Of a stretch of DNA of 64,000 nt, positions 845 to 46,804 are shown in pieces. Location: the NCBI GenBank assembly GCA_963662945.1, contig OY759974.1, positions 2,080,001 through 2,144,000 of the forward strand, written 5' to 3'. The position numbers and the translations under genes were made by a program. Each line of letters begins with the position of its first letter. Positions within the stretch are counted from its first letter, which is position 1. The notes under the pieces were generated by a model. The model saw only the letters and a list, made by a program, of their open reading frames with translations. It was not told the origin of the DNA and did no database searches. Origin of the DNA: Arcobacteraceae bacterium (GTDB lineage: Bacteria > Campylobacterota > Campylobacteria > Campylobacterales > Arcobacteraceae).

Positions 845-1400
845 AAAAGATTTACTTTGGATAGGTAAACATAAATTTGATGAGATTAATGAAGTAATAA
901 AAATTTATGGAGATAATTTATTAACTATGGAAATATTTGATGAATTAGATAGACGATTTAAAGAATTAGAAAAGTTAAAAAAATTAAATATTACTAACAA
1001 TAACTTTACACATAAAGTAAAGTCTTATAACAAAATTAAAAAAAAGTTAAAAGAAGAATTTGATTATAACTTACCTTTAACTTTACCTTTTAATAGTCCT
1101 AGTGAAATTAAAATTTACATTCATTTACTTTTAAATAGTATAGATTTAAATAAGGAACAAATACAACAGGTATTTAAAGAATATGATAGTGAAATTATAC
1201 GATTACCTAAACTTAAAAATATAGATAATGATATATACAATGAAAAGTCTACACCACTTAATATGAAGATGTGGAAGAAAACAAATTATGTTTTATGTGA
1301 TGAAACGGGAGAATATATATCAATTGAAGAATGGCAAAAAAATAATAGGACAAAAATTTCAAAAGAAGATGCAAAGTTAATGGGACTAGAGCCCTCATAA
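837..1400 (+). CDS. hypothetical protein (island)
   Basis: ORF overlaps the integrase stop; GGAG RBS precedes ATG 837. Confidence 0.7.
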   Translation: MDKKDLLWIGKHKFDEINEVIKIYGDNLLTMEIFDELDRRFKELEKLKKLNITNNNFTHKVKSYNKIKKKLKEEFDYNLPLTLPFNSPSEIKIYIHLLLNSIDLNKEQIQQVFKEYDSEIIRLPKLKNIDNDIYNEKSTPLNMKMWKKTNYVLCDETGEYISIEEWQKNNRTKISKEDAKLMGLEPS

Positions 1401-1564
1401 TCATAATATACTATATATTTAGCCAGTAAAATGTTACTGATTAAGAGCTTCAAAAAGTTTTCATAAAAATCTATACTTACATTATCCAATAAGAGCTAAC
1501 TGGATGTAACACCACCTAATCGTAGCTCAATTAGTGTGGGAAATATAAAAACAAAGGTCATAAA

Positions 1565-1756
1565 ATGACTAATGAAAAATTTTTAAGAATAACAGATGTA
1601 ATGAGTTCAACAGGTTTAGCAAAATCAACTATTTGGTTATATGTAAAAGAGGGTAGATTCCCAAAACAAATTAAACTAAGCCCAAGAGTAAGTGTATGGA
1701 AGTTATCTGATGTAGATAATTGGATAAATGAAAAGATTGAAAAGGAGATTGCTTAG
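1565..1756 (+). CDS. alpA: AlpA family excisionase/regulator
   Basis: FLRITDVMSSTGLAKSTIW..VKEGRFPKQIKLSPRVSVW..SDVDNWI is the classic AlpA signature. Confidence 0.93.
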   Translation: MTNEKFLRITDVMSSTGLAKSTIWLYVKEGRFPKQIKLSPRVSVWKLSDVDNWINEKIEKEIA

Positions 1757-1838
1757 ATGTTAGCTTCATACATAGTTCAATCATTGACTTTTACTTATTC
1801 TTTCACTGCTCTTTTTAAGAATATTTTAAGGTTTACAG

Positions 1839-2492
1839 ATGATAGCCAAAGATAAGCTTGATGATGCTTTTAAACTGGTAAATAACTTTAAGTCTATGGA
1901 TTTAAAAACTCAGACCTTTAATCAATTTCCTCTGAAACATTATAGAGTTCCTGAGGTTGATGGTATTCATAAAGGAGAGTATCGAAAAGGTATACATAAA
2001 GTAAAACCATCTACTTTAAAGTATATTCTTTTTTATCTACATAACGTAGATGAGGATATGATTATCGAAGCTCTAATAGTTCTTTTATACCATTGGAAAG
2101 TAAAAAAGAAAGATACAAAGAGGATGAGAAAAGTTTATAATAGAGTATATGAACATTATACAGTAACTAATAAAGATAGTGTACCTATGGTTACTATTAA
2201 CTATAATGCTGTTGTATATTCTATTTCATTTAATGTAGGTTCCGTAAAGTTTAATAAGTTTGGATATACAACTGATAAATTTAGGTTTATAAAACTTATA
2301 GATGATGTAAAATCTAAATATCCAAATGTTAGTGTAGGTAACTTTCAAATTCATCAAGTTATTCAATTTAAAACAAAAGAACAAGCAAAAGCATTTGAAG
2401 AAGAAGCAATAAAGAATTTAGAACTTCATAAAGACTACAAGAAGTGTAAAGTATGCTTTGATGGTTATAAAGAAGCTTATTTACATATATAA
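1839..2492 (+). CDS. putative GIY-YIG/T5orf172-like nuclease
   Basis: C-terminal VYSI...KFGYT..R...AKAFEE...FDGYKEAY pattern resembles the T5orf172/Seg-like GIY-YIG domain. Confidence 0.55.
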   Translation: MIAKDKLDDAFKLVNNFKSMDLKTQTFNQFPLKHYRVPEVDGIHKGEYRKGIHKVKPSTLKYILFYLHNVDEDMIIEALIVLLYHWKVKKKDTKRMRKVYNRVYEHYTVTNKDSVPMVTINYNAVVYSISFNVGSVKFNKFGYTTDKFRFIKLIDDVKSKYPNVSVGNFQIHQVIQFKTKEQAKAFEEEAIKNLELHKDYKKCKVCFDGYKEAYLHI

Positions 2493-2507
2493 TTGTGTTG
2501 CCACACT

Positions 2508-2530
2508 CACAACCACTGCAAGTGGTTGTG
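2508..2530 (+). terminator. stem-loop after nuclease gene
   Basis: CACAACCACT-GCA-AGTGGTTGTG perfect 10-bp inverted repeat between convergent genes. Confidence 0.55.
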
Positions 2531-2641
2531 TGGTAGAAATAACATTTCATATTGACTGTATTATTATATATAATATACAACCAAAAATAACAAAAATAAT
2601 ATCAATTTTAAAAGGTAGATATTTTTGTTAATTAAAATATA

Positions 2642-2902
2642 TTATTCCCCCATTGGTTGAAAAAAAGAAGCCATAGGTACATCCAAAACTTTTGAAATAC
2701 TATAAAGCTGTTTAATATTAAAATGCTTATTTTCTAAACCTGCCTCGATTTTTGATAGCATACTTGCAGATGAATGACCCATAGCAAGAGCAAGTTGCTC
2801 TTGTGTAAAACCTTTCATTTTTCTAAAATATTTTACATTGTTGGTTATAGTTTCAAAAAGTTGTTCAAACTCTTCTTCCTCTACATCATTATAAATCTGC
2901 AT
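2642..2902 (-). CDS. XRE-family HTH regulator
   Basis: NVKYFRKMKGFTQEQLA...LSKIEAG...ISKVLDV. Confidence 0.9.
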   Translation of the reverse strand: MQIYNDVEEEEFEQLFETITNNVKYFRKMKGFTQEQLALAMGHSSASMLSKIEAGLENKHFNIKQLYSISKVLDVPMASFFQPMGE

Positions 2903-2979
2903 AAGTCTAATGTTTTCCCTATAGGTGTAAGATATATGTAAGTTTATAAAAGATACTATTTTTTAGTAACTCCCTATAA

Positions 2980-3474
2980 GTGAAAGAAAGGAACAGAATG
3001 AAGTTTTTGAAAAATTTTATATTATTAGGTGTGATTTTATTGATAAGTGGTTGTACTCAAGCACCACATCCTATTGGAGGTGGTTTATATATGACTACAT
3101 CTACAGGTGCAGGATTTAGTGCAGAAGGTGTTACAAAAAGTGTGTATGCAGAAGCTGAAAAATTAGCTAAAGAGAAAAACAAAGTAGTTTATGTCGAATC
3201 AATTGATGTAGAGCAAGGTGCTTTGGGTAGAAATCCACCTTCAGCGAAACTAATGTTTAGATTAGTTGAACCAAATAGTGAAGAAGCAAAATCAAAACAA
3301 AGATTAATACCTGGTCTTCAAAGAATACAAATGATAGGAAACAATAATAATCCTCCAAAAAGTGAACCTACGTTAGAAGAAAAGCTATCTAAAATAAAAA
3401 AGCTTTATGAAGATGGTACTATAACCAAAGAAGAGTATGATAAAGCTAGAATTGGGATTTTATCTAACTATTAA
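2980..3474 (+). CDS. lipoprotein with C-terminal SHOCT domain
   Basis: Lipobox LISGC; EEKLSKIKKLYEDGTITKEEYDKAR matches SHOCT. Start may be ATG 2998. Confidence 0.85.
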   Translation: MKERNRMKFLKNFILLGVILLISGCTQAPHPIGGGLYMTTSTGAGFSAEGVTKSVYAEAEKLAKEKNKVVYVESIDVEQGALGRNPPSAKLMFRLVEPNSEEAKSKQRLIPGLQRIQMIGNNNNPPKSEPTLEEKLSKIKKLYEDGTITKEEYDKARIGILSNY

Positions 3475-3486
3475 GGTAGTAATATA

Positions 3487-3711
3487 ATGATAATTAGTGA
3501 CTTAATAAGTGAAATTGAAGCTTTAAAAGTTCTTAATTCTAAAGAATAAGATGTACTTAATTTAGCAAAAAAAATGACAACTTCAAAACAACAAGTTGGA
3601 ATTGATACAAGTAGCGAAGAAGCAATAAGAAATGGTGAATTTCAATACAATGGAGATTCATTTACTACATATGGTTATGATTTTGATACAGATGATGGAA
3701 GAAGATATTAA
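3487..3711 (+). pseudogene. 74-codon ORF interrupted by in-frame TAA (3547-3549)
   Basis: MIISDLISEIEALKVLNSKE*DVLNLAKKMTTS...GRRY* fills the gap between neighbouring genes in one frame; AAGG upstream; next ATG abuts the final stop. Confidence 0.5.
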
Positions 3712-30018: not shown

Positions 30019-30586
30019 CCTTTTGATAGGTTTCTTTTGTATTAATATTTAAAAACTGTTCATAATTTTCAAAAACTATCTCTTGATAGTTTTTTGAGTT
30101 TTTTATCATATAGTTTATTTTATGAATATCTTTCTTTATCATCTCTTGAATAGTTGGTAAAACATCTCTTGAAAATACTCCACAAAGATTATGTATATTA
30201 TTATCATTATCTTTTGCAATAGTGATAGAAAAGTCACTTGAATTTTTGATGAGCTTTTCTATAGTCTCCTTTTCTACAAAAGGTGTATCTACTGTGATTA
30301 TAAAAACTTTTTCATCTTTTAGAGTTTGAAATATTGTCTCTAGTGCTATCATTGGAGAAAAAATAGTTTGATTTTTATCTAAGATAAGTTGTTTATTTGG
30401 AAGTTGAAGTTTCTCATATTTATCTGTTTTTGCTGAGATATATATATTGTCAAATATGGGAAGAAGTTTCCTATATAGATACTCAATCATTGTTGTTTCA
30501 TTATCAAATTGCATAAGTGATTTATCTTCACCCATACGACTACTTTGTCCACCACTTAAGATGACGCAAGGTATAGTATTAGGCAT
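29993..30586 (-). CDS. mobA: molybdenum cofactor guanylyltransferase
   Basis: ILSGGQSSRMGEDK, VDTPF, FLNINT. Confidence 0.93.
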   Translation of the reverse strand: MPNTIPCVILSGGQSSRMGEDKSLMQFDNETTMIEYLYRKLLPIFDNIYISAKTDKYEKLQLPNKQLILDKNQTIFSPMIALETIFQTLKDEKVFIITVDTPFVEKETIEKLIKNSSDFSITIAKDNDNNIHNLCGVFSRDVLPTIQEMIKKDIHKINYMIKNSKNYQEIVFENYEQFLNINTKETYQKAKNALKKF

Positions 30587-32177
30587 TTGATGCTTCACTT
30601 ACGAGAAGTTTCCCAACTTCAAGATTTGAATCAACAAAACTTTTGATTGGTAAATCTTTCAGAGCTTTTCTCTCATCTATGGAGTCAATTTTTACTATGA
30701 TATTTGAATTTGGTTCAAAATGCAATACTGCTTCACTTATAAGTCTTTTTCTTTTAGGATTAGACACGGTTATGATGATAGCTCGTGCTTCATCTACTTT
30801 TAGAGACTCCAAAACAGGAAGTTTATCAAGGTGACCAAAGTATCCCATATAGCCTAACTTTCTTGCGAGTAATACATGTTTTAAGTTATCTGAGATGATA
30901 ACAAATGGTATCTCTTGTGTACTTAATTCTTGTGCGACAATTCTTCCTAGCATAGAAAATCCAGCTATTACCACATGGTTTTTTGCCTCAATTGGAGTAA
31001 TAACATCTGATTCATAAAACTCTTTTGCAAAATATGATGAAAGTTTATAAATATTATTTACGATAAATGGTGTCAGTATCATCGAAATTACAGTTATAAG
31101 TATCAAAAAACTTGCCATTTGAGGAGAAATCAGATGATTTGAAAGTGCTAGTGCAAAAATAGCAAATGAAAATTCCCCAACGCTAGCTAGCGCAAGAGCA
31201 GTTTTTACGGCACTATTTTTATCTGATTTTTTTATCATAATTATATAGATAACTATCGCTTTAAATAAAAATACTCCCACAAAAATAGCAAATATAATAT
31301 GAAGATTGTTTAAAAAGTAAAATACATCTATTTTAGTTCCAACACTAAAGAAAAATGCTCCTAAAAGCAGGTCTTTGTAGCTAGAGATATCTGATTCTAC
31401 TTTTACACTATATCCAGTATCAGCTATAATCATACCAGCAATAAAGGCACCCAAAGAGTAAGTAAACCCTAAATCATGAGCTAAAAGTGAAGCCCCAATC
31501 ACTATAGAAAAAACAGCCCCTAAAAACAGTTCTTCTAAACCACTTGAAGCTGAAGATCTAAGGAGTATATTTACTATTTTTTTCCCAATTGTAAACATAA
31601 ATAAGATAATTATCAATGCAGATATAAAAGTTTGAAATAAAACTTCTGTTAAAGATAATGTATCATTTGTTAGAAAAGTTATAAGTAAAAGTATAGGTAT
31701 CACTGCTAAATCTTGAAATATTAAAATTCCCAATGATTTTTCCCCATAAGGTGTATGAATATCTTTTGATTCCTTAAGATAAGTTAACACAATAGCAGTT
31801 GATGAAAGGGAAAATGCTAATGAGATAATAATCGAAGTATTAAAATCTAATTTAAAAATAAAATAAGAGATGATAAATATTACCAAGGTACTTAAAATAA
31901 CTTGTAAAAAACCATTTACAAGAAGTATCTCTTTCATTTTACGAATTTTGTCAAAATTGAGTTCTAATCCGATAGTAAACATCAAAAATACAATTCCAAA
32001 TTCACCGATTAATTCAAGTGAATGTATGTCAATGCCATTAAAATTAAAAATATAACTAATAATAGTACCAGAAAGGATATATCCAATAATATGTGAGATA
32101 CCATATCTTTTAAAAATAATATTGAATATCGTAGCAAATGAAATCGCTAAAAAAATTGCTATAAGTATATTGTTCAT
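30579..32177 (-). CDS. CPA2 cation:proton antiporter with KTN domain
   Basis: EFGIVFLMFTIGLE, LSSTAIV, FQDLA, C-terminal KTN. Confidence 0.92.
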   Translation of the reverse strand: MNNILIAIFLAISFATIFNIIFKRYGISHIIGYILSGTIISYIFNFNGIDIHSLELIGEFGIVFLMFTIGLELNFDKIRKMKEILLVNGFLQVILSTLVIFIISYFIFKLDFNTSIIISLAFSLSSTAIVLTYLKESKDIHTPYGEKSLGILIFQDLAVIPILLLITFLTNDTLSLTEVLFQTFISALIIILFMFTIGKKIVNILLRSSASSGLEELFLGAVFSIVIGASLLAHDLGFTYSLGAFIAGMIIADTGYSVKVESDISSYKDLLLGAFFFSVGTKIDVFYFLNNLHIIFAIFVGVFLFKAIVIYIIMIKKSDKNSAVKTALALASVGEFSFAIFALALSNHLISPQMASFLILITVISMILTPFIVNNIYKLSSYFAKEFYESDVITPIEAKNHVVIAGFSMLGRIVAQELSTQEIPFVIISDNLKHVLLARKLGYMGYFGHLDKLPVLESLKVDEARAIIITVSNPKRKRLISEAVLHFEPNSNIIVKIDSIDERKALKDLPIKSFVDSNLEVGKLLVSEASNA

Positions 32178-32245
32178 GAGTATATTATATCAAATATTTT
32201 TAAAAGAATTTCTCTTGAAATGTATTATATTTTATACAATGAATA

Positions 32246-33961
32246 TTAATCTTTACTATAATGTTTGTGAAGTTCTCTAATTGTTTCATAATCATCTTTT
32301 CTAAAGAATGTAAGAATATCAAAAACCTCTTCTCTTGTTCGTCCAAGATTTAGTAGTGTTTCAGCAGCAAGTCTTAAACTACCTTCGGCAGCTTCTGGCA
32401 TTGCCCATGTTGCGCCATGTTTTAATAATGCATCACGTGTTTCCATATCTCGTGTTCTTGAAAGAACTTTTAAAATAGGATATTGTGCTCTTATGTGTGA
32501 GATTATTTTTGAAGATGTATGGTGATTATCAACTGTTATAATAACTGCTTCAACTCTCTCAAGACCTATTTTATTTAAAAATTCTAGTTCACTAAGTTCA
32601 CCATAGTATACAGCTCTTCCCTCTTTTTGTCCTAGTTCTACTCTTTTAGAGTCTATATCAAAAGCAATATAGGGAACACCAGCATATTCTAACATTGTAG
32701 CAACTAATCTACCTACTCGCCCATATCCAGCAATGACAACACCTTTCCATAACTCTTCTGGTACATAGGCAGACTCTATTTTGATAGGTTCATTATTTAA
32801 TTTAAGAGCAAGTTTATCTCCAATATTTACTATCATTGGTGTAAGAAGCATACTAAAAGAGATTATTGTTACAGCAGCAATAAAAAGTTCATCACTAATT
32901 ACACCTAATGCTTTAGCAGAACCAAAAAGAACAAATCCAAATTCTCCACTTTGTGACAAAAGAAATGAAACGGAAGCAGCTGTTGATCTACTATATCCCA
33001 TATATAACATTAAAACAAATAAAGCAATAATTTTAATCCCCATAATTACAAAAAGATGTTGAATTAAAATTAAAGGGTCATTCATCATTGCATGGATATC
33101 GATAGACATCCCAACTGCAATAAAGAACATAGTCATTAAGAGTCCTTTATAAGGTTCGACATGGGCTTGTATTTGATAATGATATTTAGAACTTGATAGC
33201 ATCATTCCCATAATAAAAGCTCCCAATGCCATTGAAAGACCAGCATGTTCCATTGCCCATGCTGCAAAAATTACCGCAAGCATAACAGAAAAGAAAAAAG
33301 CATCACGATTTTGATTTCTTGCTAAATAATCTAAAATTTTTGGAATGATATATTTCCCCAATGCTATCAAAGTTATAATTGAACCAAGTGCAATAAAAAT
33401 TTGTTGCCATAAAGAATGTCCTTGAGAAAGATCTCCCCCTTTGGCCAAAATTGGAACTAAAGCTAGTAATGGAACAACAGCGAGATCTTGCATTAATAAA
33501 ATTGCAAAGCCACTTTTCCCTACAGGGGAATATAATTGTCCTTTCTCTTGTAAAATTTGCATTACAAATGCAGTAGATGAAAGTGCGAATGTAAGACCTA
33601 CTAATAATGCAACTTGCCAAGACTGAGAATAAAAAGTACTATAGATAAAAATTAAAATACCAGATAGAATAATTTGTGCACTTCCTAAACCAAATACTTC
33701 TTTTCTCATATCCCAAAGTTTTTTAGGTTGCATCTCTAAGCCTATGACAAAGAGTAATAAAACTACACCAAATTCAGTAATATGTCGTACCGCATCAACT
33801 TTATTTGTTAAAATTGGACCAGGAGAATAGGGACCTACAATTACACCAGCAATTAAAAGTCCTAATATACTACCCAGACCAAGTTTTTTAGAAAGTGCAA
33901 CAAGTAAAGTAGCAACAGCAAATAGATAGAATGTTAAGTTTAATAATTCAGAATTATCCAA
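32246..33961 (-). CDS. KefB/KefC-like CPA2 antiporter
   Basis: EFGVVLLLFVIGLE, MQDLA, GYGRVG KTN motif. Confidence 0.92.
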   Translation of the reverse strand: MDNSELLNLTFYLFAVATLLVALSKKLGLGSILGLLIAGVIVGPYSPGPILTNKVDAVRHITEFGVVLLLFVIGLEMQPKKLWDMRKEVFGLGSAQIILSGILIFIYSTFYSQSWQVALLVGLTFALSSTAFVMQILQEKGQLYSPVGKSGFAILLMQDLAVVPLLALVPILAKGGDLSQGHSLWQQIFIALGSIITLIALGKYIIPKILDYLARNQNRDAFFFSVMLAVIFAAWAMEHAGLSMALGAFIMGMMLSSSKYHYQIQAHVEPYKGLLMTMFFIAVGMSIDIHAMMNDPLILIQHLFVIMGIKIIALFVLMLYMGYSRSTAASVSFLLSQSGEFGFVLFGSAKALGVISDELFIAAVTIISFSMLLTPMIVNIGDKLALKLNNEPIKIESAYVPEELWKGVVIAGYGRVGRLVATMLEYAGVPYIAFDIDSKRVELGQKEGRAVYYGELSELEFLNKIGLERVEAVIITVDNHHTSSKIISHIRAQYPILKVLSRTRDMETRDALLKHGATWAMPEAAEGSLRLAAETLLNLGRTREEVFDILTFFRKDDYETIRELHKHYSKD

Positions 33962-34132
33962 TTTATATTTTCCTCTTAAAATTATCTTTAGATAATTTAT
34001 AATGATTATTATATCTATTAATCAATTAGAATTGGATTGCATTATATATTGATTAATAAACAAGGTTAATGTTATTTTAATAGATTTTTTATAGAATAAG
34101 CAAAGTTAGTAATTAATAAAAGGAATTTAAGT

Positions 34133-35422
34133 ATGACAAAATATGTTGAGACTTTTCAGGATTTTATATCCAAAGAAGCATTTAGTGGATTTTTACTTTT
34201 TACTGCAACTGTAGTTGCCGTTATTGTAGCAAATTCTTCACTTTCGCAAGAGTATTATAATCTATGGCATGCACCACTTGGTGTAACTATGGGGGATATG
34301 AATATCTCTATGAGTTTATCTATGTGGATAAATGATGGTTTGATGGCACTATTTTTTTTAATGGTTGGATTAGAGATTAAAAGAGAGATGCTTATAGGTG
34401 AGTTAAGCAGTGTAAGAAAAGCTTCTTTTCCTGTAATTGCAGCAGTAGGTGGAATGGTGATTCCTGCACTTATTTATGTAGGATTAAATCCTGAAAATCC
34501 AATTGGTTTTGGAGTTCCTATGGCTACAGATATTGCATTTGCATTAGGAATTTTACTGCTTCTTGGTAACAAAGTAAATCCAGCATTAAAATTATTTTTA
34601 GTAGCACTTGCTGTTGTTGATGATTTGGGGGCTGTTTTAGTAGTAGCAACTGTATACACAAGTGAAATTCATGCAGCTTATTTTCTCCATGCTATTTTAA
34701 TTTATGCATTGATTTGGATACTCAATCTTAAAGGTGTAAAAGCACTTTGGCCTTATCTAATTCTTGGAATTTTTTTATGGGTTTATATACATGCTATAGG
34801 TATTCACGCAACTATTGCTGGGGTATTATTAGCTTTAGCTATACCTATTAGTTCAAAAATTGAAGAGAGAAAATTTATTGAAACTTCAAAAAAAGCAATA
34901 GATGAATTTGAAAAACACATCGATGAGATACCAATTTTAAATCATCATCAAATAGATGCTTTAGAAAATATAGCTTATGGATATGATAAAGTACAAAATC
35001 CATTAGTCAAATTAGAACATCAGCTTCATGGGTTTAGTGCATTTTTTATTATGCCACTTTTTGCTTTTGCAAATGCAGGAGTTGTTATAGATTTTAGTGG
35101 GGTTTCACAACATCTTATGATAGTTTTAGGAGTTGTTTTCGGACTAGTTATAGGAAAACCTATAGGAATAGTAGCTTTTACTTATCTTGCATCAAAAACG
35201 AAACTTATTCATAAACCTGATAATTTAAGTTGGGAAGAGATAGTTGCTGTTGGATTCTTAGCTGGGATTGGGTTTACAATGTCTATTTTTATAACTCATT
35301 TAGCGTTTGTAGATGAGAGTGTAATTAGTGCAGTAAAACTTGGAATTTTTATAGCTTCTTTTATAGCTGGAGTTCTTGGAGTTTTACTAATAAATAGAGC
35401 TTCTAAAAAACAGTGTAGTTAA
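34133..35422 (+). CDS. nhaA: Na+/H+ antiporter NhaA
   Basis: WINDGLM, ATDIAFA, VVDDLGA, GIGFTMS. Confidence 0.97.
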   Translation: MTKYVETFQDFISKEAFSGFLLFTATVVAVIVANSSLSQEYYNLWHAPLGVTMGDMNISMSLSMWINDGLMALFFLMVGLEIKREMLIGELSSVRKASFPVIAAVGGMVIPALIYVGLNPENPIGFGVPMATDIAFALGILLLLGNKVNPALKLFLVALAVVDDLGAVLVVATVYTSEIHAAYFLHAILIYALIWILNLKGVKALWPYLILGIFLWVYIHAIGIHATIAGVLLALAIPISSKIEERKFIETSKKAIDEFEKHIDEIPILNHHQIDALENIAYGYDKVQNPLVKLEHQLHGFSAFFIMPLFAFANAGVVIDFSGVSQHLMIVLGVVFGLVIGKPIGIVAFTYLASKTKLIHKPDNLSWEEIVAVGFLAGIGFTMSIFITHLAFVDESVISAVKLGIFIASFIAGVLGVLLINRASKKQCS

Positions 35423-35425
35423 AAT

Positions 35426-37018
35426 ATGTTAACAATTATTGTTGCTACACTATTAATCTCTTTAGTGGCTAATATATTTTTAAAGAGATTTAACCTTCCT
35501 ACAATTATAGGTTATATTGTTACAGGTACAATTATTGCCTATGGATTTGGACTGCATGATGCTGTCCATAACCATGAACTTAAAGAGATAGCAGAATTTG
35601 GAGTAGTTTTTTTAATGTTCACTATTGGATTAGAATTTTCTATAGAACATTTAAAAAAGATGAAATATGAAGTATTTGTTGCAGGTACTTTACAGATAGT
35701 TATTACCTCTTTTATAGTGTATCTTATGGCATATTATATTTTTGATATTACACAAAAAACCTCTTTTATAATCTCTCTTGCAATTGCCTTATCTTCAACG
35801 GCAATTGTTTTAAAAACATTTAATGAAACAGGAGAAATAAATAAACGATATGGACAAAGAAGTTTAGGGATTTTGATTATGCAAGATATTGCAGTAATCC
35901 CTATCTTACTTATTATAGGTTTTATGAGCAATAATAATCAAGGGGAAATCTCATCAGTTTTACTACAAATGGGATTGAGTGCATTGGTTTTACTTGTTTT
36001 ACTAGGAACTATAGGAAAATATCTTTTAGAGCCATTTTTCACTCAAATTGTAAAAACAAATTCTGATGAACTTTTTATTACTACGATTCTTTTCTTAGCA
36101 ATAGGGGCTTCATATTTAGCACATATTTTAGGATTTTCATACTCTCTTGGAGCCTTTATTGCAGGAATGTTGATTGCAGAAACAAAATATAAACATCAAG
36201 CTGAAGCAGATCTTATCCCATTTAGAGATATTCTTCTAGGAATCTTTTTTATTACTGTTGGAATGCAAATAGACTTTAATATTATTTTTTCATATATTCA
36301 TATTATAGCTATGCTATTGGTGGGTGTTGTTGTTTTAAAATTTATAATTATCTATTCAATAGTAAGAACTACTGAAAATAGTAAAATAAGTTTGCAAACA
36401 GCATTAAGTTTGGTGCAAATAGGAGAATTTTCTTTAGCTTTGTTAGAACTTGCTAGAACAAATGGACTTATAGGTCCACCACATGGTCAAATTATGATTG
36501 TTACTATTGTAATTTCAATGATTCTTACTCCAATTATTTTAAAAAACATCCCTTTTATTGTGGATTTATTTATTAAAAAAGAGCAAATAGTTGAGAATCA
36601 AATAGAGTCAAGTGATTATACAAATCATACGATTATTATAGGTTTTGGAGAGTTTGGACAAAATGTTGCAAAAGTATTAAGGAATGATTCATTCCCTTAT
36701 ATTGCTATAGAGAATAACATAGAAACGTACCATAAAGTAAAAGCGCTGAATGAACCAATAATATTTGGAAATGCAGTAAAAAAAGATATTTTAAAAACGG
36801 CAAATGTCAAAGAGGCTAAAAATATTGTAATAGCTATAGATAATCCTAAGAAGCTTTACCATGTGTGTCACACTTTACAACATTTTCTTTCAAATGAAAA
36901 TATAATTGTTAAGGTACATAATAGTGGAGAAAAGCATATAATTGAAGAATTAGGTATTCAAAATATTATAGTTGAAAATGAAATTAGTAGTCAAGAAGTT
37001 TTAAAAAAACTTTTATAA
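35426..37018 (+). CDS. CPA2 cation:proton antiporter with KTN domain
   Basis: EFGVVFLMFTIGLE, MQDIA, GFGEFG. Confidence 0.92.
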   Translation: MLTIIVATLLISLVANIFLKRFNLPTIIGYIVTGTIIAYGFGLHDAVHNHELKEIAEFGVVFLMFTIGLEFSIEHLKKMKYEVFVAGTLQIVITSFIVYLMAYYIFDITQKTSFIISLAIALSSTAIVLKTFNETGEINKRYGQRSLGILIMQDIAVIPILLIIGFMSNNNQGEISSVLLQMGLSALVLLVLLGTIGKYLLEPFFTQIVKTNSDELFITTILFLAIGASYLAHILGFSYSLGAFIAGMLIAETKYKHQAEADLIPFRDILLGIFFITVGMQIDFNIIFSYIHIIAMLLVGVVVLKFIIIYSIVRTTENSKISLQTALSLVQIGEFSLALLELARTNGLIGPPHGQIMIVTIVISMILTPIILKNIPFIVDLFIKKEQIVENQIESSDYTNHTIIIGFGEFGQNVAKVLRNDSFPYIAIENNIETYHKVKALNEPIIFGNAVKKDILKTANVKEAKNIVIAIDNPKKLYHVCHTLQHFLSNENIIVKVHNSGEKHIIEELGIQNIIVENEISSQEVLKKLL

Positions 37019-37043
37019 ACTAGAGGGTTTCCTCTAGTTTATA
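37014..37043. terminator. bidirectional terminator
   Basis: TATAAACTAGAGG-GTTT-CCTCTAGTTTATA between convergent genes. Confidence 0.8.
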
Positions 37044-37046
37044 CTT

Positions 37047-38078
37047 TTAGTTAAACTCTGGTTTTGGAGTTTTATCTGTTATTACCGGTAAAATAGGGTA
37101 AGTTATAGTTGGTTTTTTCCCTGTTAAAGAGTTTAAGAAAGTTACAATTTGTTCACTCTCTTTATCAGTTATTTTAATACCTAACTGAGTAGAACCCATC
37201 TCTTTAACTGCATCTTTTAGTGACCAAATATTACCATTGTGGAAATATGGTGCTGTTTCTTGGATATTTCTAAGTGTTGGAGTTTTTACCATACCATCTT
37301 TATTTCCTTTAAAATCACCCTTTGCATAAGAGTATTTTGCGTGAATTTGGAATGGTTGCATAGTACCACCAAGACCTATATCTGTATGACAAGCAGTACA
37401 ACCTTTATCAATAAATACTTTTAAACCTGTTTTTTCCTCTTTTGTTAATGCATTTGCATTACCATTTAAAAATGCATCAAATCTTGAAGGTGTTATAAGG
37501 GTTCTTTCAAATACAGCAATTGTATCTGTAATAAGTTCAAATGTAATTTTTACATCATCTCCATAAGCTTTTTTAAATTCAGCTACATAATCAGGCATAG
37601 AAGTTACACGTGCAAGAACTAAATCTTTTGGAGCTGCCATCTCTGGACCTGCTTGAACTGGACCTTGTGCTTGCGCTTCTAAGTGAGGGTCTCTTCCATC
37701 CCAAAATTGTACAGCATTTAAAACTGAGTTATAAACAGTTGGAGAGTTTAAATGATGTGGGTTTGCTGTCCATTTGTGACCAATTGCAGCACCAACTCCA
37801 TCAACACCACCCATTGCTAGGTTGTGACATGTATTACATGAAATTAGATTACTTTTTGAAAGTCTTGGATCAAAATAGAGTTTTTTCCCTAATTCTACTT
37901 TACAATCTGTAATAGGATTTTTTGGATTATCCACTAACTTTAATACCTCTAATTTACTTTGTGGGATAGCTTTAAGACCTGAGTCTTTTGCTGATTTGAT
38001 AAGTGAAGTATCACTCATACCAAATAAACTTACACTTGTAAACAATGTAGCTGCAGCTACGATAGATAATTTTTTCAT
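37047..38078 (-). CDS. di-haem cytochrome c peroxidase (canonical)
   Basis: Signal peptide, CNTCH, IGH, QFWDGR, CTACH, PTLRN..TAPYFHNG, EMG. Confidence 0.95.
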   Translation of the reverse strand: MKKLSIVAAATLFTSVSLFGMSDTSLIKSAKDSGLKAIPQSKLEVLKLVDNPKNPITDCKVELGKKLYFDPRLSKSNLISCNTCHNLAMGGVDGVGAAIGHKWTANPHHLNSPTVYNSVLNAVQFWDGRDPHLEAQAQGPVQAGPEMAAPKDLVLARVTSMPDYVAEFKKAYGDDVKITFELITDTIAVFERTLITPSRFDAFLNGNANALTKEEKTGLKVFIDKGCTACHTDIGLGGTMQPFQIHAKYSYAKGDFKGNKDGMVKTPTLRNIQETAPYFHNGNIWSLKDAVKEMGSTQLGIKITDKESEQIVTFLNSLTGKKPTITYPILPVITDKTPKPEFN

Positions 38079-38168
38079 AATTTTCCTTTTTGAATAATTT
38101 CAATAATAAGTATAAAGAAAAAAAATGTGAAAATTATGTGGAAATTAAATTTACCTAAAATAAAAAGA

Positions 38169-39659
38169 TTACTTTTTTAAAGTGATAATAAACAAAGCAC
38201 CACCTTTACTATTTTTAACTTCTAACTTCCCTTTACTTTTTTCAATAATCATCTTTGACATGTAAAGACCTATCCCTAGACCTTTCTCTTTTGTGGTAAA
38301 ATATGGCTCAAATATTTTTTCTAGAAGTTCTTGTTTTATTCCACCTGCATTATCTTTTATCTCTATTTTTATGGTATCTTTTTCACTATATGTATTTATA
38401 GTAATATTTGGATTTTTGATTGATTGTTTTATAAATTGATCTTTTGCATTATTCAAAATATTAAAAATCACCTGTAAAAACTCTCCTTTATATACTTTGA
38501 TAGAGATATTTTCATCTAGAGTACACTTTATATCTATATTATGTGATTTAAAACTATCTTCTAAAAGGTTTATCACCTCTTTTATAGATTTACTCAAATC
38601 AAAAAGTTCTGTTGTATTTGTATTTCTAAAAAAATCTCTAAAATCATCTATTGTATTGGAAAGGTATTTTAACTGTCCATTAGCAAGTTTTATTTTTTTA
38701 TCAAAATATTCTAGGGTTAATTTATCTTTTTTATATGCTGTGTTGAGATTCATTAAAATATAAGAAAGATGGGTAAGTGGCTGTCTCCATTGGTGGGCAA
38801 TATTACCTATCATCTCTCCCATTGATGCTAGTTTACTTTGGTATGTGAGGTTGTGAAGTTGTTTCTGAGATTGTTTCAATTTTCTATAAAAAAGTGTAAA
38901 AAGGGTCAAAAAAAGTGCAACAAGTACAAATAGTATATTCAAAGTTATATAAACACTCTTTTGTACCATATCTCTTTGCTTTATCAGTAACAACTTCATT
39001 TTTTCTAAAAGTGTATCTATGTTTTTATTGATTGCTTCATTTTGATATTGTAATTGAAAATTGATACTACTTTGTAAAGTTTTTACCTCTTTTACAAAAA
39101 TCTCTTTAAATTTATTATCTATTTTTAAGTCATAATACTTCACTAAATCCATATCATAAAACTCTTTTTGCTTATTTGAAAGTAAGTCAAGTCTTATGTT
39201 ATTAAGCTTATTTTTTGTCTCAAGGTCAAAGTTTGCTAGTTCATAGTGTGACCTATCTAAAATAATCGATATTATTTTTTCATCGGTTGCTCTTCTTGCT
39301 TTAAACCTTTCCAACCAAATAACTTTTTGACCAAATTGTATATCTAGTTGATCTAATATATTTATATAAGAGGCTTCAAAATGAACATTTTTTGCATCAT
39401 TTTTTATTTTTTTAATCGATTGTAGACTCAATGTAATATCTTGATTTATAATATCAAAATTGTCTACTTTCATATACCCTTTAATATAATTATTTAATTT
39501 ATTATTTAAAGCTATAAGTGTATTTATTTTATCATTGTGATCAAAAAAAAGTTGTGTATTTTTTTTGTGAATGAGAATTGTATAAAACATAATCAAAAAA
39601 ACTACAAGTAAAGTTATTAATACTATATAGATATTATTTCGTATAAGATATTGTCTCAT
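38169..39659 (-). CDS. sensor histidine kinase with all-helical periplasmic domain
   Basis: Two TMs, IAHQWRQPL, DNAGGI, GLGIGL. Confidence 0.93.
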   Translation of the reverse strand: MRQYLIRNNIYIVLITLLVVFLIMFYTILIHKKNTQLFFDHNDKINTLIALNNKLNNYIKGYMKVDNFDIINQDITLSLQSIKKIKNDAKNVHFEASYINILDQLDIQFGQKVIWLERFKARRATDEKIISIILDRSHYELANFDLETKNKLNNIRLDLLSNKQKEFYDMDLVKYYDLKIDNKFKEIFVKEVKTLQSSINFQLQYQNEAINKNIDTLLEKMKLLLIKQRDMVQKSVYITLNILFVLVALFLTLFTLFYRKLKQSQKQLHNLTYQSKLASMGEMIGNIAHQWRQPLTHLSYILMNLNTAYKKDKLTLEYFDKKIKLANGQLKYLSNTIDDFRDFFRNTNTTELFDLSKSIKEVINLLEDSFKSHNIDIKCTLDENISIKVYKGEFLQVIFNILNNAKDQFIKQSIKNPNITINTYSEKDTIKIEIKDNAGGIKQELLEKIFEPYFTTKEKGLGIGLYMSKMIIEKSKGKLEVKNSKGGALFIITLKK

Positions 39660-40624
39660 TTGATTATATTCACTTCCCCACTTAAAGATTTTAAAAATTC
39701 TTCAATATAAAAGAGCTCCTCTTTTTTTAATTCGATTCCCAATTGAGCTTTTGCAATTAACTCAATAGCTTCTTTAAGGGTTTTTATACTTCCATTGTGC
39801 AGATAAGGGGAGGTAAGTGCTACATTTCTAAGTGTTGGTACTTTGAAATAAAATTTATCATAATCATTTTTTGTTATATTATAAAACCCAAGATTTAGAT
39901 CAATAGTAAAAGAGGAGTTGGTGTCATTATTATTCTGAGAATTATGGTTCAAATCTTTAATAACACTTGGATCAACCAAACCAAAACGGGCATATAAACC
40001 TCCTCCGATATTTATACCGTTGTGACAAGATGTACATCCTTTTTTATAAAAAAGCTTATATCCTTTTTTTTGATCACTATTTAAAGCTTCTTTATCTCCC
40101 ATAAGATACCTATCAAAAGCACTAGGAGTTATAAGTGTTTTTTGAAACTCTTGAAGAGCATCGCCAATATTGTCTTTGGTGATACCATTTTCATACAAAT
40201 TATTAAATAGGGTATTGTAGTTTTTATTTTTTTTAAGATTTTCAATAAGATTTTCAAAGCTATTTCCCATCTCTTTAGGATTTGTAATAGGAAATTGCAC
40301 TTGATGAGACAAACTTTCTCCTCTACCATCCCACATCTGTCTGAAGTTAAATACCGCATTGAGTACTGTTGGTGTATTTATATTTCCCATTTGCCCATTG
40401 ATACCAAAAGATAATGGAAGATTGTCAGTACCACCTAGTTCAAGATTGTGGCAACTAGCACAAGAGATTGTATTATCTTTTGAAAGTATCGTGTCAAAAT
40501 AGAGCTTTTTACCAAGTAATGCTTTTTGTTTATCATACTCTATGGCTTTTGGTAGGGGTAGCATCACCTCTACACCATACAAGTTTATTACAAAAGAAAA
40601 TAATAAAACTAAAAGAAATTTCAA
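39656..40624 (-). CDS. divergent cytochrome c peroxidase-like di-haem protein
   Basis: CASCH and CTSCH, MWDGR, VPTLRN; overlaps the kinase start. Confidence 0.88.
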   Translation of the reverse strand: MKFLLVLLFSFVINLYGVEVMLPLPKAIEYDKQKALLGKKLYFDTILSKDNTISCASCHNLELGGTDNLPLSFGINGQMGNINTPTVLNAVFNFRQMWDGRGESLSHQVQFPITNPKEMGNSFENLIENLKKNKNYNTLFNNLYENGITKDNIGDALQEFQKTLITPSAFDRYLMGDKEALNSDQKKGYKLFYKKGCTSCHNGINIGGGLYARFGLVDPSVIKDLNHNSQNNNDTNSSFTIDLNLGFYNITKNDYDKFYFKVPTLRNVALTSPYLHNGSIKTLKEAIELIAKAQLGIELKKEELFYIEEFLKSLSGEVNIIK

Positions 40625-40630
40625 AATATT

Positions 40631-41305
40631 TTATCCTGCAAGATTGATTTGATATCCTATACCAGATATATTTTTAATACTTGATTTTGAAGTTTTTTTT
40701 CTAAGTTCTCGTATAACAGAACGAAGTGCATCTTCACTCATATTTCCATCCCATACATAACTATTAAACTCTTCATATCTCAAAGCCCTATTAGAATTTT
40801 TGATCAAATACTCCAAACATAATAACTCTTTTTTTGTAAGTATGATTTGTTTATTCTTAAAAAAAAGTGTTTCATTGAATATATCAAATGTATATCCTCC
40901 AAAAATATGAAATATTGATTGTTTAGCTACAACATCTTCAACACAACTATTTAAAACAGGTAATAAAGTATCTTCCATAATAGGTTTTACAAGATACTTA
41001 ATAAGTCCAAGTTCTATAGCTTCAACTAAATATGAAGTTTCTAAAAAAGCTGTAGCTATAATAATCTTTGTAGTTTTATCAGTTTTGCGTATCTCTTTTA
41101 TCATCTCTATACCATTGAGTTTGGGCATTTTTATGTCAGTGATAATAATATCTGGTTTTAACTCTCTGTATTTTTCTAATCCCTCTTTACCATTAGATGC
41201 TTCATAAACATTGTCACAATAAAACTCAAGATATTCAACTGCATCTGCTCTTATAAAATCTTCATCATCTATATAGAGTATTTTTAAATTTTTTAAGCAC
41301 TCCAT
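40631..41305 (-). CDS. OmpR-family response regulator
   Basis: IDDE, TDIKMP, KP; winged helix ending ISGIGY. Confidence 0.95.
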   Translation of the reverse strand: MECLKNLKILYIDDEDFIRADAVEYLEFYCDNVYEASNGKEGLEKYRELKPDIIITDIKMPKLNGIEMIKEIRKTDKTTKIIIATAFLETSYLVEAIELGLIKYLVKPIMEDTLLPVLNSCVEDVVAKQSIFHIFGGYTFDIFNETLFFKNKQIILTKKELLCLEYLIKNSNRALRYEEFNSYVWDGNMSEDALRSVIRELRKKTSKSSIKNISGIGYQINLAG

Positions 41306-41506
41306 AAGTTTCCTTTTTAAATAATCTACACTATGATAATAGAAGAAAAATTACAACATAAACAAATATTCTTATCACTTCTCTTCTATACTTCCATCTA
41401 TTTTTACATATAAAGTATAAATATATACTTACAGAACTATATAAGGACAGCTCTAAAATATTTTGATAACTTGTATGAACCAAATAGTACTTTATTTTGT
41501 AATCAA

Positions 41507-41540
41507 AAAAGGGATATTGAGTTGATTCAATATCCCTTTT
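41507..41540 (-). terminator. terminator after peroxiredoxin
   Basis: AAAAGGGATATTGA-N6-TCAATATCCCTTTT. Confidence 0.8.
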
Positions 41541-41561
41541 CATAAATTGACTACACTATAA

Positions 41562-42266
41562 TTATGACATAATCTCTTCAATAGTGATGTAATCACCAAC
41601 TCTACCAGTCATTTGCTCTACATCTGTATTTACTGGAAGTGTTTTTTTACCTGGAACCCATCCTGCTGGACAAACTTCACCTGTTTTTTCTGCATGTTGC
41701 CAAGCTCTTACTTGTCTTAAAAATTCATGCACATTTCTTCCTACCATTGGAGCTTGTACCTCTTGGGCTACTACAGTTCCCTCAGGATTGATTAAAAATC
41801 TTCCTCTAAGTGCAATACCTTCCTCTTCAATCATAACACCAAAAGCTCGACTAACTGCACCTGTAGTATCTGCACCAATTGTAAGTTGTAATCCTTTTAA
41901 TAATGGCTCAGTTTCAACAAATCTTTTATGTGAAAATTTTGTATCTGTTGATACTGCTAATATCTCAACGCCAAGTTCTTGAAACTCATCATATTTTGCA
42001 TTCATTGCAGCTATTTCTGTTGGACAAACAAATGTAAAATCTGCTGGATAAAAACACACTACTGACCATTTACCTTTGTAATCTTCACTACTTACTGTTT
42101 GGTAGTGACCTGTTTTTGCGTTATACGCATCCATTTTAAACTCTGGAGCTTTTCTTAATACTAATGATGAACTCATATTTTTTTCCTTTTTTTCTATTAT
42201 TTTATTTTCGTCTGTAGAGACAACTTGTTTTTCTTCTATTGGTTTTGCACCTGTATCGCAAGCCAT
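41562..42266 (-). CDS. 2-Cys peroxiredoxin (AhpC/Prx1) with N-terminal extension
   Basis: FYPADFTFVCPTE and GEVCPAGW. Confidence 0.95.
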   Translation of the reverse strand: MACDTGAKPIEEKQVVSTDENKIIEKKEKNMSSSLVLRKAPEFKMDAYNAKTGHYQTVSSEDYKGKWSVVCFYPADFTFVCPTEIAAMNAKYDEFQELGVEILAVSTDTKFSHKRFVETEPLLKGLQLTIGADTTGAVSRAFGVMIEEEGIALRGRFLINPEGTVVAQEVQAPMVGRNVHEFLRQVRAWQHAEKTGEVCPAGWVPGKKTLPVNTDVEQMTGRVGDYITIEEIMS

Positions 42267-45616: not shown

Positions 45617-46804
45617 TTATTCCTTGATTAAATGCTCATATCTCTTATCAGTCAAAAGTTTCATAAAAGCTACCAAAGCCTCCACTTTTCTTTCACTTAA
45701 AGGCTTTCCAACAGTTAAAAGTTTCATATCATCTTTGGCAATCTCTACTTCTGGTTTATTCCAAACTTTTCCTGTCTCTGGATTTATAGTATTTTCTTTA
45801 TTGGTATATTTATCATAAAACTTTACAACAGTTTTTAAGTCTTGAAATACACCATTATGCATATAAGGGGCTGTTACCGCTATGTTTCTTAGTGTTGGTA
45901 CTTTTATTTTTCCATCGTATTGTTTTGCATTTGGTAGTTTTTTTATCTCTGGATTTTGTAAGAGACCATGATCTACGAAAGTATGTGGATCTACTACATT
46001 TTTTTCCATTAAAGTTTTGTTTTGTGGTACTCCTATATTGTGATACTGGTAGTTTGAAAAAGTTTCTTGAGGTGCATCTTCTGTTTTTAGCATATGACAC
46101 GAAGCACAATTTGTGTTGTTGTTACTAAAAAAGAGTGTTCTTCCCAAATCTTCTAAAGCAGTTAGATCATATTCACCTTTTAAAAATCTATCATATTTAC
46201 TATCAAAAGGGGCAAATTGTTCTGTTTTTTCAAAACTTGCAATGGCTTGTGCCATCATAGAGTAGGCTTTGTCACTATCTTTGAAAATATCTTCCCCATA
46301 GATTTTTTTGAACTCTTGATTGTATGTTGGACTATTTTGAAGTCTTTTTACTAAGTATTGGGCTGAGGGCATTCCCATCTCTACAGAGTTCATAGGAGGT
46401 CCACCTGCTTGTCCCTCTAAAGTATGTTCTCTTCCATCATAAAATTGTCCACCAATATATTGTTTTTTCTTTTTATCGTAGTGAAATTTTGGACTAAACA
46501 TTGCATAAGAGGCAGTGGGTGCATTTCTATCTCCGATACTTTTTCCATCATCTCCTAAGCTTCCTGCCCCTTTTACACCATTATCTCTCTCATCTATAAA
46601 TCCATGTTGTGGATTGTGGCAGGTTGCACAGGATTGGGTTTTGTTTTTGGATAAAATAGGGTCAAAAAAAAGTTTTTCCCCTAATGCTATCTCTTGTTTC
46701 TCTTTTAATTTTGCTGTTTGTGTATCAATATTATTTGAACTACATCCTGCAAATATTATTAGGGTAGTTGCTATTGATAAACCTATTTTAAATTCTTTTG
46801 CCAT
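45617..46804 (-). CDS. di-haem bCcP/MauG-superfamily lipoprotein
   Basis: Lipobox FAGC, CATCH, CASCH, VPTLRN..TAPYMHNG. Confidence 0.9.
   Translation of the reverse strand: MAKEFKIGLSIATTLIIFAGCSSNNIDTQTAKLKEKQEIALGEKLFFDPILSKNKTQSCATCHNPQHGFIDERDNGVKGAGSLGDDGKSIGDRNAPTASYAMFSPKFHYDKKKKQYIGGQFYDGREHTLEGQAGGPPMNSVEMGMPSAQYLVKRLQNSPTYNQEFKKIYGEDIFKDSDKAYSMMAQAIASFEKTEQFAPFDSKYDRFLKGEYDLTALEDLGRTLFFSNNNTNCASCHMLKTEDAPQETFSNYQYHNIGVPQNKTLMEKNVVDPHTFVDHGLLQNPEIKKLPNAKQYDGKIKVPTLRNIAVTAPYMHNGVFQDLKTVVKFYDKYTNKENTINPETGKVWNKPEVEIAKDDMKLLTVGKPLSERKVEALVAFMKLLTDKRYEHLIKE

Follow-up and report, generated by a model that had tools for sequence, protein, structure and literature searches.

A four-gene cassette on the minus strand of the 64,000-nucleotide stretch analysed here (contig OY759974.1 of an Arcobacteraceae bacterium; hereafter the window) combines a two-component system with two proteins of the dihaem cytochrome c peroxidase (CCP) type. 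The first gene codes for an OmpR-family response regulator of 224 residues (40631..41305), with Pfam matches to Response_reg (E 4e-26) and Trans_reg_C (E 1e-11) and with the DD, TDIKMP, T and K motifs in place. It is followed by the gene for a CCP-like dihaem c protein of 322 residues (39656..40624; Pfam CCP_MauG, E 1.5e-55, alignments and a structure model) and by that for a membrane histidine kinase of 496 residues (38169..39659; a HATPase match, a weak HisKA match and the H-box His289). The reading frames of the CCP-like protein and the kinase share an ATGA, i.e. they overlap by 4 nt at 39656-39659. The last gene, ccp, encodes a canonical dihaem CCP of 343 residues (37047..38078; Pfam CCP_MauG, E 7e-51; best PDB match Geobacter CcpA, E 7e-90), in which the His, Trp, Gln, Glu and Met ligands are all intact. 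Open reading frames and Pfam matches agree with the gene order of the original prediction, which was made from the sequence alone and had taken the CCP-like protein for an accessory sensor of the kinase. A receiver plus winged-helix regulator, intact kinase motifs and a predicted direct-repeat operator are features of an OmpR/PhoB-type two-component system. The same four-gene order recurs in related genomes (G006, G529, G816, G843, G858 and G860) and at Arcobacter and Halarcobacter loci (L034-L036), and is therefore not due to chance; the regulator gene lies upstream in 8/8 genomes whose upstream DNA was read. The relatives of the window genome are Campylobacterales, Arcobacter and Halarcobacter being the closest named ones.

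The spacer between the kinase gene and ccp contains a predicted regulator site, recognised by conservation and a matrix scan. It is an 11-bp direct repeat with two half-sites (38146-38125, minus strand) and ends 10 nt before the predicted -10 element of the ccp promoter, TATACT (38109..38114, minus strand), which is conserved in 6/6 aligned cassette loci and replaced by variant hexamers in four further genomes. A direct repeat with a period of 10-11 bp that covers the -35 region is the usual site of an OmpR/PhoB activator; we take the repeat here to resemble the DccR box of Campylobacter jejuni. When a matrix was derived from four other genomes, the window site scored 30.1 bits and ranked first in the 2.5-Mb genome, the next site reaching 17.1 bits. 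A promoter scan was uninformative, as it returned 34 sites with 33 expected. As controls served 18 canonical ccp promoters outside cassettes, drawn from 17 of 22 loci (five loci were dropped, as the pattern used found no His-type open reading frame). None of them has the repeat, and their best score is 6.6 bits. Among 184 Arcobacteraceae genomes, 14 possess this kinase clade and 12 match the promoter pattern. Eleven of these matches lie directly behind the kinase gene, ten with ccp in view and one at a contig end; the match in G858:C1 falls by chance inside a gene, and the twelfth genome carries the repeat in its own cassette with three mismatches. The repeat is accordingly found between kinase and ccp in 12/12 cassette genomes. 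The repeat is missing from the two clade genomes G015 and G020, where the kinase contains a PAS domain, a globin gene comes next and no close regulator is present. Since the repeat occurs with the cassette in every case and in 0/18 other ccp promoters, ccp is probably the target of the regulator. The ccp protein of the window is 85-87% identical to non-cassette ccp proteins of the same genus and 73-81% identical to cassette ccp proteins of other genera. Judged from these alignments, the protein follows the genus, and its promoter follows the regulator and its cassette.

The CCP-like protein, which begins with a hydrophobic signal-like segment, is 37% identical to the canonical CCP, and each of the two has two CxxCH motifs. 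An alignment with solved peroxidases places Ile75 (SFGIN) at the position of the distal His, where the canonical copy reads AIGHK, and reveals that Ile290 (ELIAKAQLG) replaces the E-haem Met (KEMGSTQLG in the canonical copy). The earlier observation that both haem motifs are kept while these two ligands are missing is thus correct. Retained are Trp98, Gln108 and Glu118 as well as the calcium-site residues Asn83, Thr271 and Pro273; for the peroxide-reacting role of Trp98, Gln108, Glu118 and Asn83 and for the calcium ligands we rely on PMC10094543. The distal His is absent from all of the 120 proteins closest to the CCP-like protein, whereas residue 290 is Met in 60 and Ile in 60 of them; Trp98, Gln108, Glu118 and Asn83 are retained in 60/60 proteins of the Ile clade. 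In a tree of 155 of 215 rows, calculated with a quick method and rooted at the midpoint, the Met-to-Ile exchange defines one subclade (12 rows, support 99). No conserved His or Met that could replace the lost E-haem ligand was found in the C-terminal domain. Residues 220-245, near the E haem, form an Asn-rich low-complexity insertion that is modelled with low confidence and varies within the clade. A metagenome scan returned only five close relatives.

Neither ligand loss can carry the sensor hypothesis in the way originally envisaged. The structure model of the CCP-like protein (predicted local distance difference test, pLDDT, 90.9) has its closest fold in YhjA (9qdt; template modelling score, TM, 0.88), and Escherichia coli YhjA, which likewise lacks a protein ligand on the distal side, binds H2O2 when oxidised and is an active peroxidase (PMC10301912). 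Loss of the distal His therefore indicates an open site and not a dead enzyme, and we rejected it as a mark of inactivity. The E-haem Met is kept in 119/129 partners linked to a DAHL receptor domain (see below), so that its loss is a trait of the subclade and cannot account for a sensor role of the family. A literature search for data on E-haem Met mutants found none; by analogy with YhjA M125A, Ile290 would lower the potential of the E haem and impair electron entry. The DAHL-linked proteins have no loop Trp, and their C-terminal tail is short (median 8 residues versus 25), which may free the dimer face.

With classical bacterial CCPs (bCCPs) such as those of Pseudomonas, Geobacter and Neisseria (CcpA) the CCP-like protein shares the CCP_MauG fold, the two CxxCH motifs, the bridging Trp, the catalytic Gln and Glu and the Asn/Thr/Pro calcium site. 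It differs from them in lacking the distal His activation loop and its Trp as well as the His/Met-ligated E haem, and in its shorter C-terminal tail. The rows of trihaem quinol peroxidases, the class of YhjA, are placed on the side of the tree that holds the CCP-like protein. YhjA has the same Trp, Gln and Glu but possesses a third haem, a membrane anchor and the E-haem Met, whereas the window protein has two CxxCH motifs in 322 residues, no third N-terminal haem domain, Ile290 and a DAHL partner. Membership in the MauG/MbnH/BthA class was rejected by the NCBIfam cut-offs (MauG, 156 versus 444 bits; MbnH, 172 versus 363 bits).

In the kinase, two hydrophobic helices flank a periplasmic domain of ~205 residues that is all-helical in the structure model (pLDDT 91.9). 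A profile of the kinase clade matches the DAHL profile over its whole length (hhalign, probability 98.9, E 1.4e-17), and kinase orthologues of 62% identity reach E values of 2e-6 to 6e-6 (26-28 bits, with the cut-off at 38). The sensor, a double module made up of helices alone and set between two membrane helices, is by this profile comparison a divergent DAHL domain, in line with the helical domain and the DAHL relationship that had been suggested at the outset. In the kinase partners of the Met-to-Ile clade the DAHL-motif residues Asn128, Ser129 and His191 are lost in 10/10 cases. A Foldseek search with the sensor domain yielded no match at E<=0.001. Its best full-length fold match is the TorS sensor (Z 12.6, root-mean-square deviation 2.9, 194/207 residues aligned), and the longest matches, to TorS, McpZ and PilJ domains, have Z values of about 12, a range common for helical bundles. 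TorS, which is controlled by TorT and the apocytochrome TorC (PMC8534201), likewise combines a double four-helix-bundle sensor with periplasmic partners that include a cytochrome. There, however, the partner is a binding protein or an apocytochrome, and the likeness noted is one of fold.

A census of the pairing was started from DAHL matches, independently of the CCP query. Across 61 related genomes, 38 of the 39 DAHL matches listed have a same-strand CCP-like gene 100-420 bp upstream, the exception being a weak match. It is also found upstream at 30/30 best loci of the 68 matches in 301 Pseudomonadota genomes (one of these loci belongs to the seed genome) and at 37/40 DAHL loci of a further Campylobacterales sample. 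In the three remaining Campylobacterales cases, one contig ends too early, one locus (L312) has no CCP-like gene, and one (L313) has a small monohaem cytochrome c gene (1012-1344) ahead of the DAHL receptor gene (1381-3636), which suggests other c-type partners. CCP-like and DAHL genes abut or overlap in 137/142 locus rows, some of which are duplicates, and the named pair loci include Cyanobacteriota and Acidobacteriota. Behind the DAHL domain follow kinases, hybrid kinases, GGDEF/EAL proteins or chemoreceptors; because these outputs vary, the CCP-like protein and the DAHL domain appear as the constant unit. As a control, 24/25 rows of His-bearing CCPs have no DAHL neighbour. The converse association is looser, since some His-less relatives, in Myxococcota and among the trihaem forms, have no DAHL partner. 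DAHL domains occur in 185/401 Campylobacterales and 51/301 Pseudomonadota genomes searched.

Several individual loci deserve mention. The window genome harbours three CCP-like/kinase pairs in total. The two additional His-less CCP-like genes (G000:C1 1739232-1742040, plus strand, and 885396-887835, minus strand) overlap or abut a membrane kinase gene and encode the E-haem Met, and neither has a regulator gene next to it; the first is paired with a clear DAHL-PAS kinase. At L115 (4999-8604) and L116 (7146-10793) a Met-to-Ile CCP-like gene and a DAHL-PAS kinase gene are followed by a truncated globin gene, with neither regulator nor ccp. Five Pseudomonadota partners (L135, L138, L142, L145 and L148) have Asp or Gln in place of the catalytic Glu together with a different loop and form a second, independently altered subgroup. 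At L315 (3219-3686, G786) the CCP-like gene ahead of a DAHL chemoreceptor gene is cut short at 155 residues, which could reflect a natural lesion or a fault in the assembly. In our literature search, no paper dealt with a general CCP-DAHL module, with this cassette or with its operator; subscription journals were thinly covered, and primary DocA or DAHL papers may mention the linkage. The available part of a paper on the bCCP network (PMC6405878) makes no mention of kinases.

The original prediction had also tied in a peroxiredoxin. A peroxiredoxin gene (41562..42266, minus strand) does lie directly upstream of the regulator gene, but we rejected it as a part of the cassette: a terminator-like hairpin (41505..41541, minus strand, z -7.3) sets it apart, and among the cassette genomes read it adjoins the regulator only in the window genome and G006. 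In G013, G009 and G025, where the cassette is missing, ccp likewise has a peroxiredoxin gene in its vicinity; the copies near ccp in same-genus genomes without the cassette are 94-99% identical, once with a catalase gene in between. The window protein has a Cys-containing N-terminal extension, and its best NCBIfam match is the PrxU family, below the cut-off. On the other side, a bidirectional terminator-like hairpin (37014..37043), found by hairpin prediction, closes ccp, and four cation/proton antiporter genes (30579-37018; three Kef-like, one NhaA-like, as read from the sequence) converge on it. A third gene of the CCP_MauG family (45617-46804, minus strand; 395 residues, MbnH/MauG-like below cut-offs) clusters with sterol-desaturase-like, imelysin-like and Zn/Ni uptake genes, these names too being read from the sequence.

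We propose, at a probability of roughly 0.5, that the cassette encodes a three-component regulator consisting of the CCP-like detector, the DAHL kinase and the OmpR-type regulator, with ccp as its target. The periplasmic dihaem protein would dock on the DAHL domain of the kinase, and from the conserved gene linkage such physical binding is probable. H2O2, the somewhat favoured signal, would react at the open haem and alter the state of the dihaem protein. The kinase would then phosphorylate the regulator, which would bind the 11-bp repeat and, as we infer, activate rather than repress ccp, and the induced CCP would remove the peroxide signal. In the Met-less subclade, a lower E-haem potential would slow re-reduction and prolong the peroxide-oxidised state, turning the protein into a detector instead of a scavenger. 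The wiring is better supported than the signal. Of the earlier proposal, the accessory sensor and the ccp target are backed by gene linkage and the conserved operator, while the residue losses no longer serve as evidence for them.

A number of observations weigh against this model. The window kinase alone gives no match to Pfam DAHL (PF19443) above the cut-off, and a DAHL profile built without its clade assigns it 7.5 bits, which is not significant. The 12 cassette genomes belong to three genera of shared descent, so the co-occurrence of repeat and cassette does not amount to 12 independent events. L312 and L313 carry DAHL genes with upstream DNA and no CCP-like gene, and the Met-to-Ile pair of G015 and G020 has neither regulator nor ccp alongside. 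Glu118 is changed in 5/29 Pseudomonadota partners, and peroxide chemistry is therefore not universal in the family. The DAHL domain of Tlp10 has been reported to detect small molecules, e.g. malate (PMC9796306), so a partner may be dispensable for DAHL. Finally, most bacterial CCPs, as well as C. jejuni Cj0358, rise at low oxygen (PMC5656828), which fits an O2 or redox signal as well.

Such a signal is the main rival to H2O2: with the same wiring, the CCP-like protein could report O2, nitric oxide (NO) or the redox state of the periplasmic cytochrome c pool, and ccp would be induced microoxically. Gases could bind at an open distal site, in the Ile clade five-coordination is conceivable for both haems, and truncated globin, hemerythrin and nitrite reductase genes are among the neighbours of clade members. 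Yet Gln108, Glu118 and Trp98, needless for gas binding alone, are kept throughout the Ile clade, and the predicted target encodes a peroxidase; we consider this alternative unlikely, if the strongest of those weighed here.

It is less probable again that the CCP-like protein is an ordinary open peroxidase of the YhjA kind, merely co-transcribed with a kinase whose DAHL domain detects small molecules unaided, as the Tlp10 ligand report would allow. The activity of YhjA without a distal ligand, its place as the closest fold and the His-less relatives without DAHL speak for such an enzyme. A pairing that is translationally coupled and close to obligatory, whatever the phylum or output type, is hard to reconcile with it, as are the three paralogous pairs in the window genome and the loss of the E-haem Met, which should impair electron entry; moreover, docA mutants of C. 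jejuni are not peroxide-sensitive and yet have the same defect in colonisation as tlp10 mutants (PMC13462783). Most doubtful is the possibility that the sensor pair is real while ccp is repressed or is not the target at all, the repeat being a co-inherited flank or the site of another regulator. The repeat does lie in a spacer of 90 bp that has been passed on together with the kinase, cassette genomes hold about 100 regulator-like candidates, and RacR of C. jejuni represses cj0358 (PMC6682613). Against this, the repeat and its distance from the -10 element are maintained between loci whose proteins are 62-71% identical and whose flanking DNA differs, and the regulator-less G013, G015 and G020 lack the repeat.

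The CCP-like/DAHL pair of the cassette belongs to the same type as C. jejuni DocA (Cj0020c/CcpA1) and Tlp10 (DocB/Cj0019c), in which the gene of a His-less dihaem CCP overlaps the start of the downstream DAHL chemoreceptor gene. In position and labels, a C. jejuni-labelled locus agrees with the descriptions of docA-tlp10 in PMC3156733 and PMC13462783; its CCP of 304 residues keeps Trp, Gln and Glu and is 43% identical to the CCP-like protein of the window. According to PMC13462783 (2026), docA and tlp10 are translationally coupled, and one sentence there suggests that peroxide might be signalled through an interaction of DocA with Tlp10. The differences are that DocA keeps the E-haem Met, where the window protein has Ile290, and that the output of DocA-Tlp10 is chemotaxis and not transcription, without a regulator, operator or target gene of its own. 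New here are the transcriptional output, with its predicted operator and target gene, as well as the Met-less subclade.

The cassette thus bears on the role of DocA, which is needed for chick colonisation and dispensable for peroxide resistance (PMC13462783, PMC3156733), and on what DAHL receptors sense. It supplies what the other pairs lack, i.e. a regulator of its own together with a predicted operator and one target gene, and therefore a promoter reporter can probe both the dependence on the partner and the nature of the signal. If the model is true, the cassette encodes a periplasmic haem-based peroxide sensor, distinct from the cytoplasmic OxyR and PerR. As a more tentative generalisation, which we hold at slightly less than even odds, DAHL may serve less as a sensor of small molecules than as a docking receptor for widespread periplasmic dihaem pseudo-peroxidases that relay peroxide status to kinases, cyclic di-GMP enzymes and chemoreceptors. 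The Arcobacteraceae cassette would be its purest form, a turnover-crippled haem trap with a one-gene regulon that serves bacteria without OxyR as a dedicated periplasmic H2O2 sensor, and the same principle would explain DocA.

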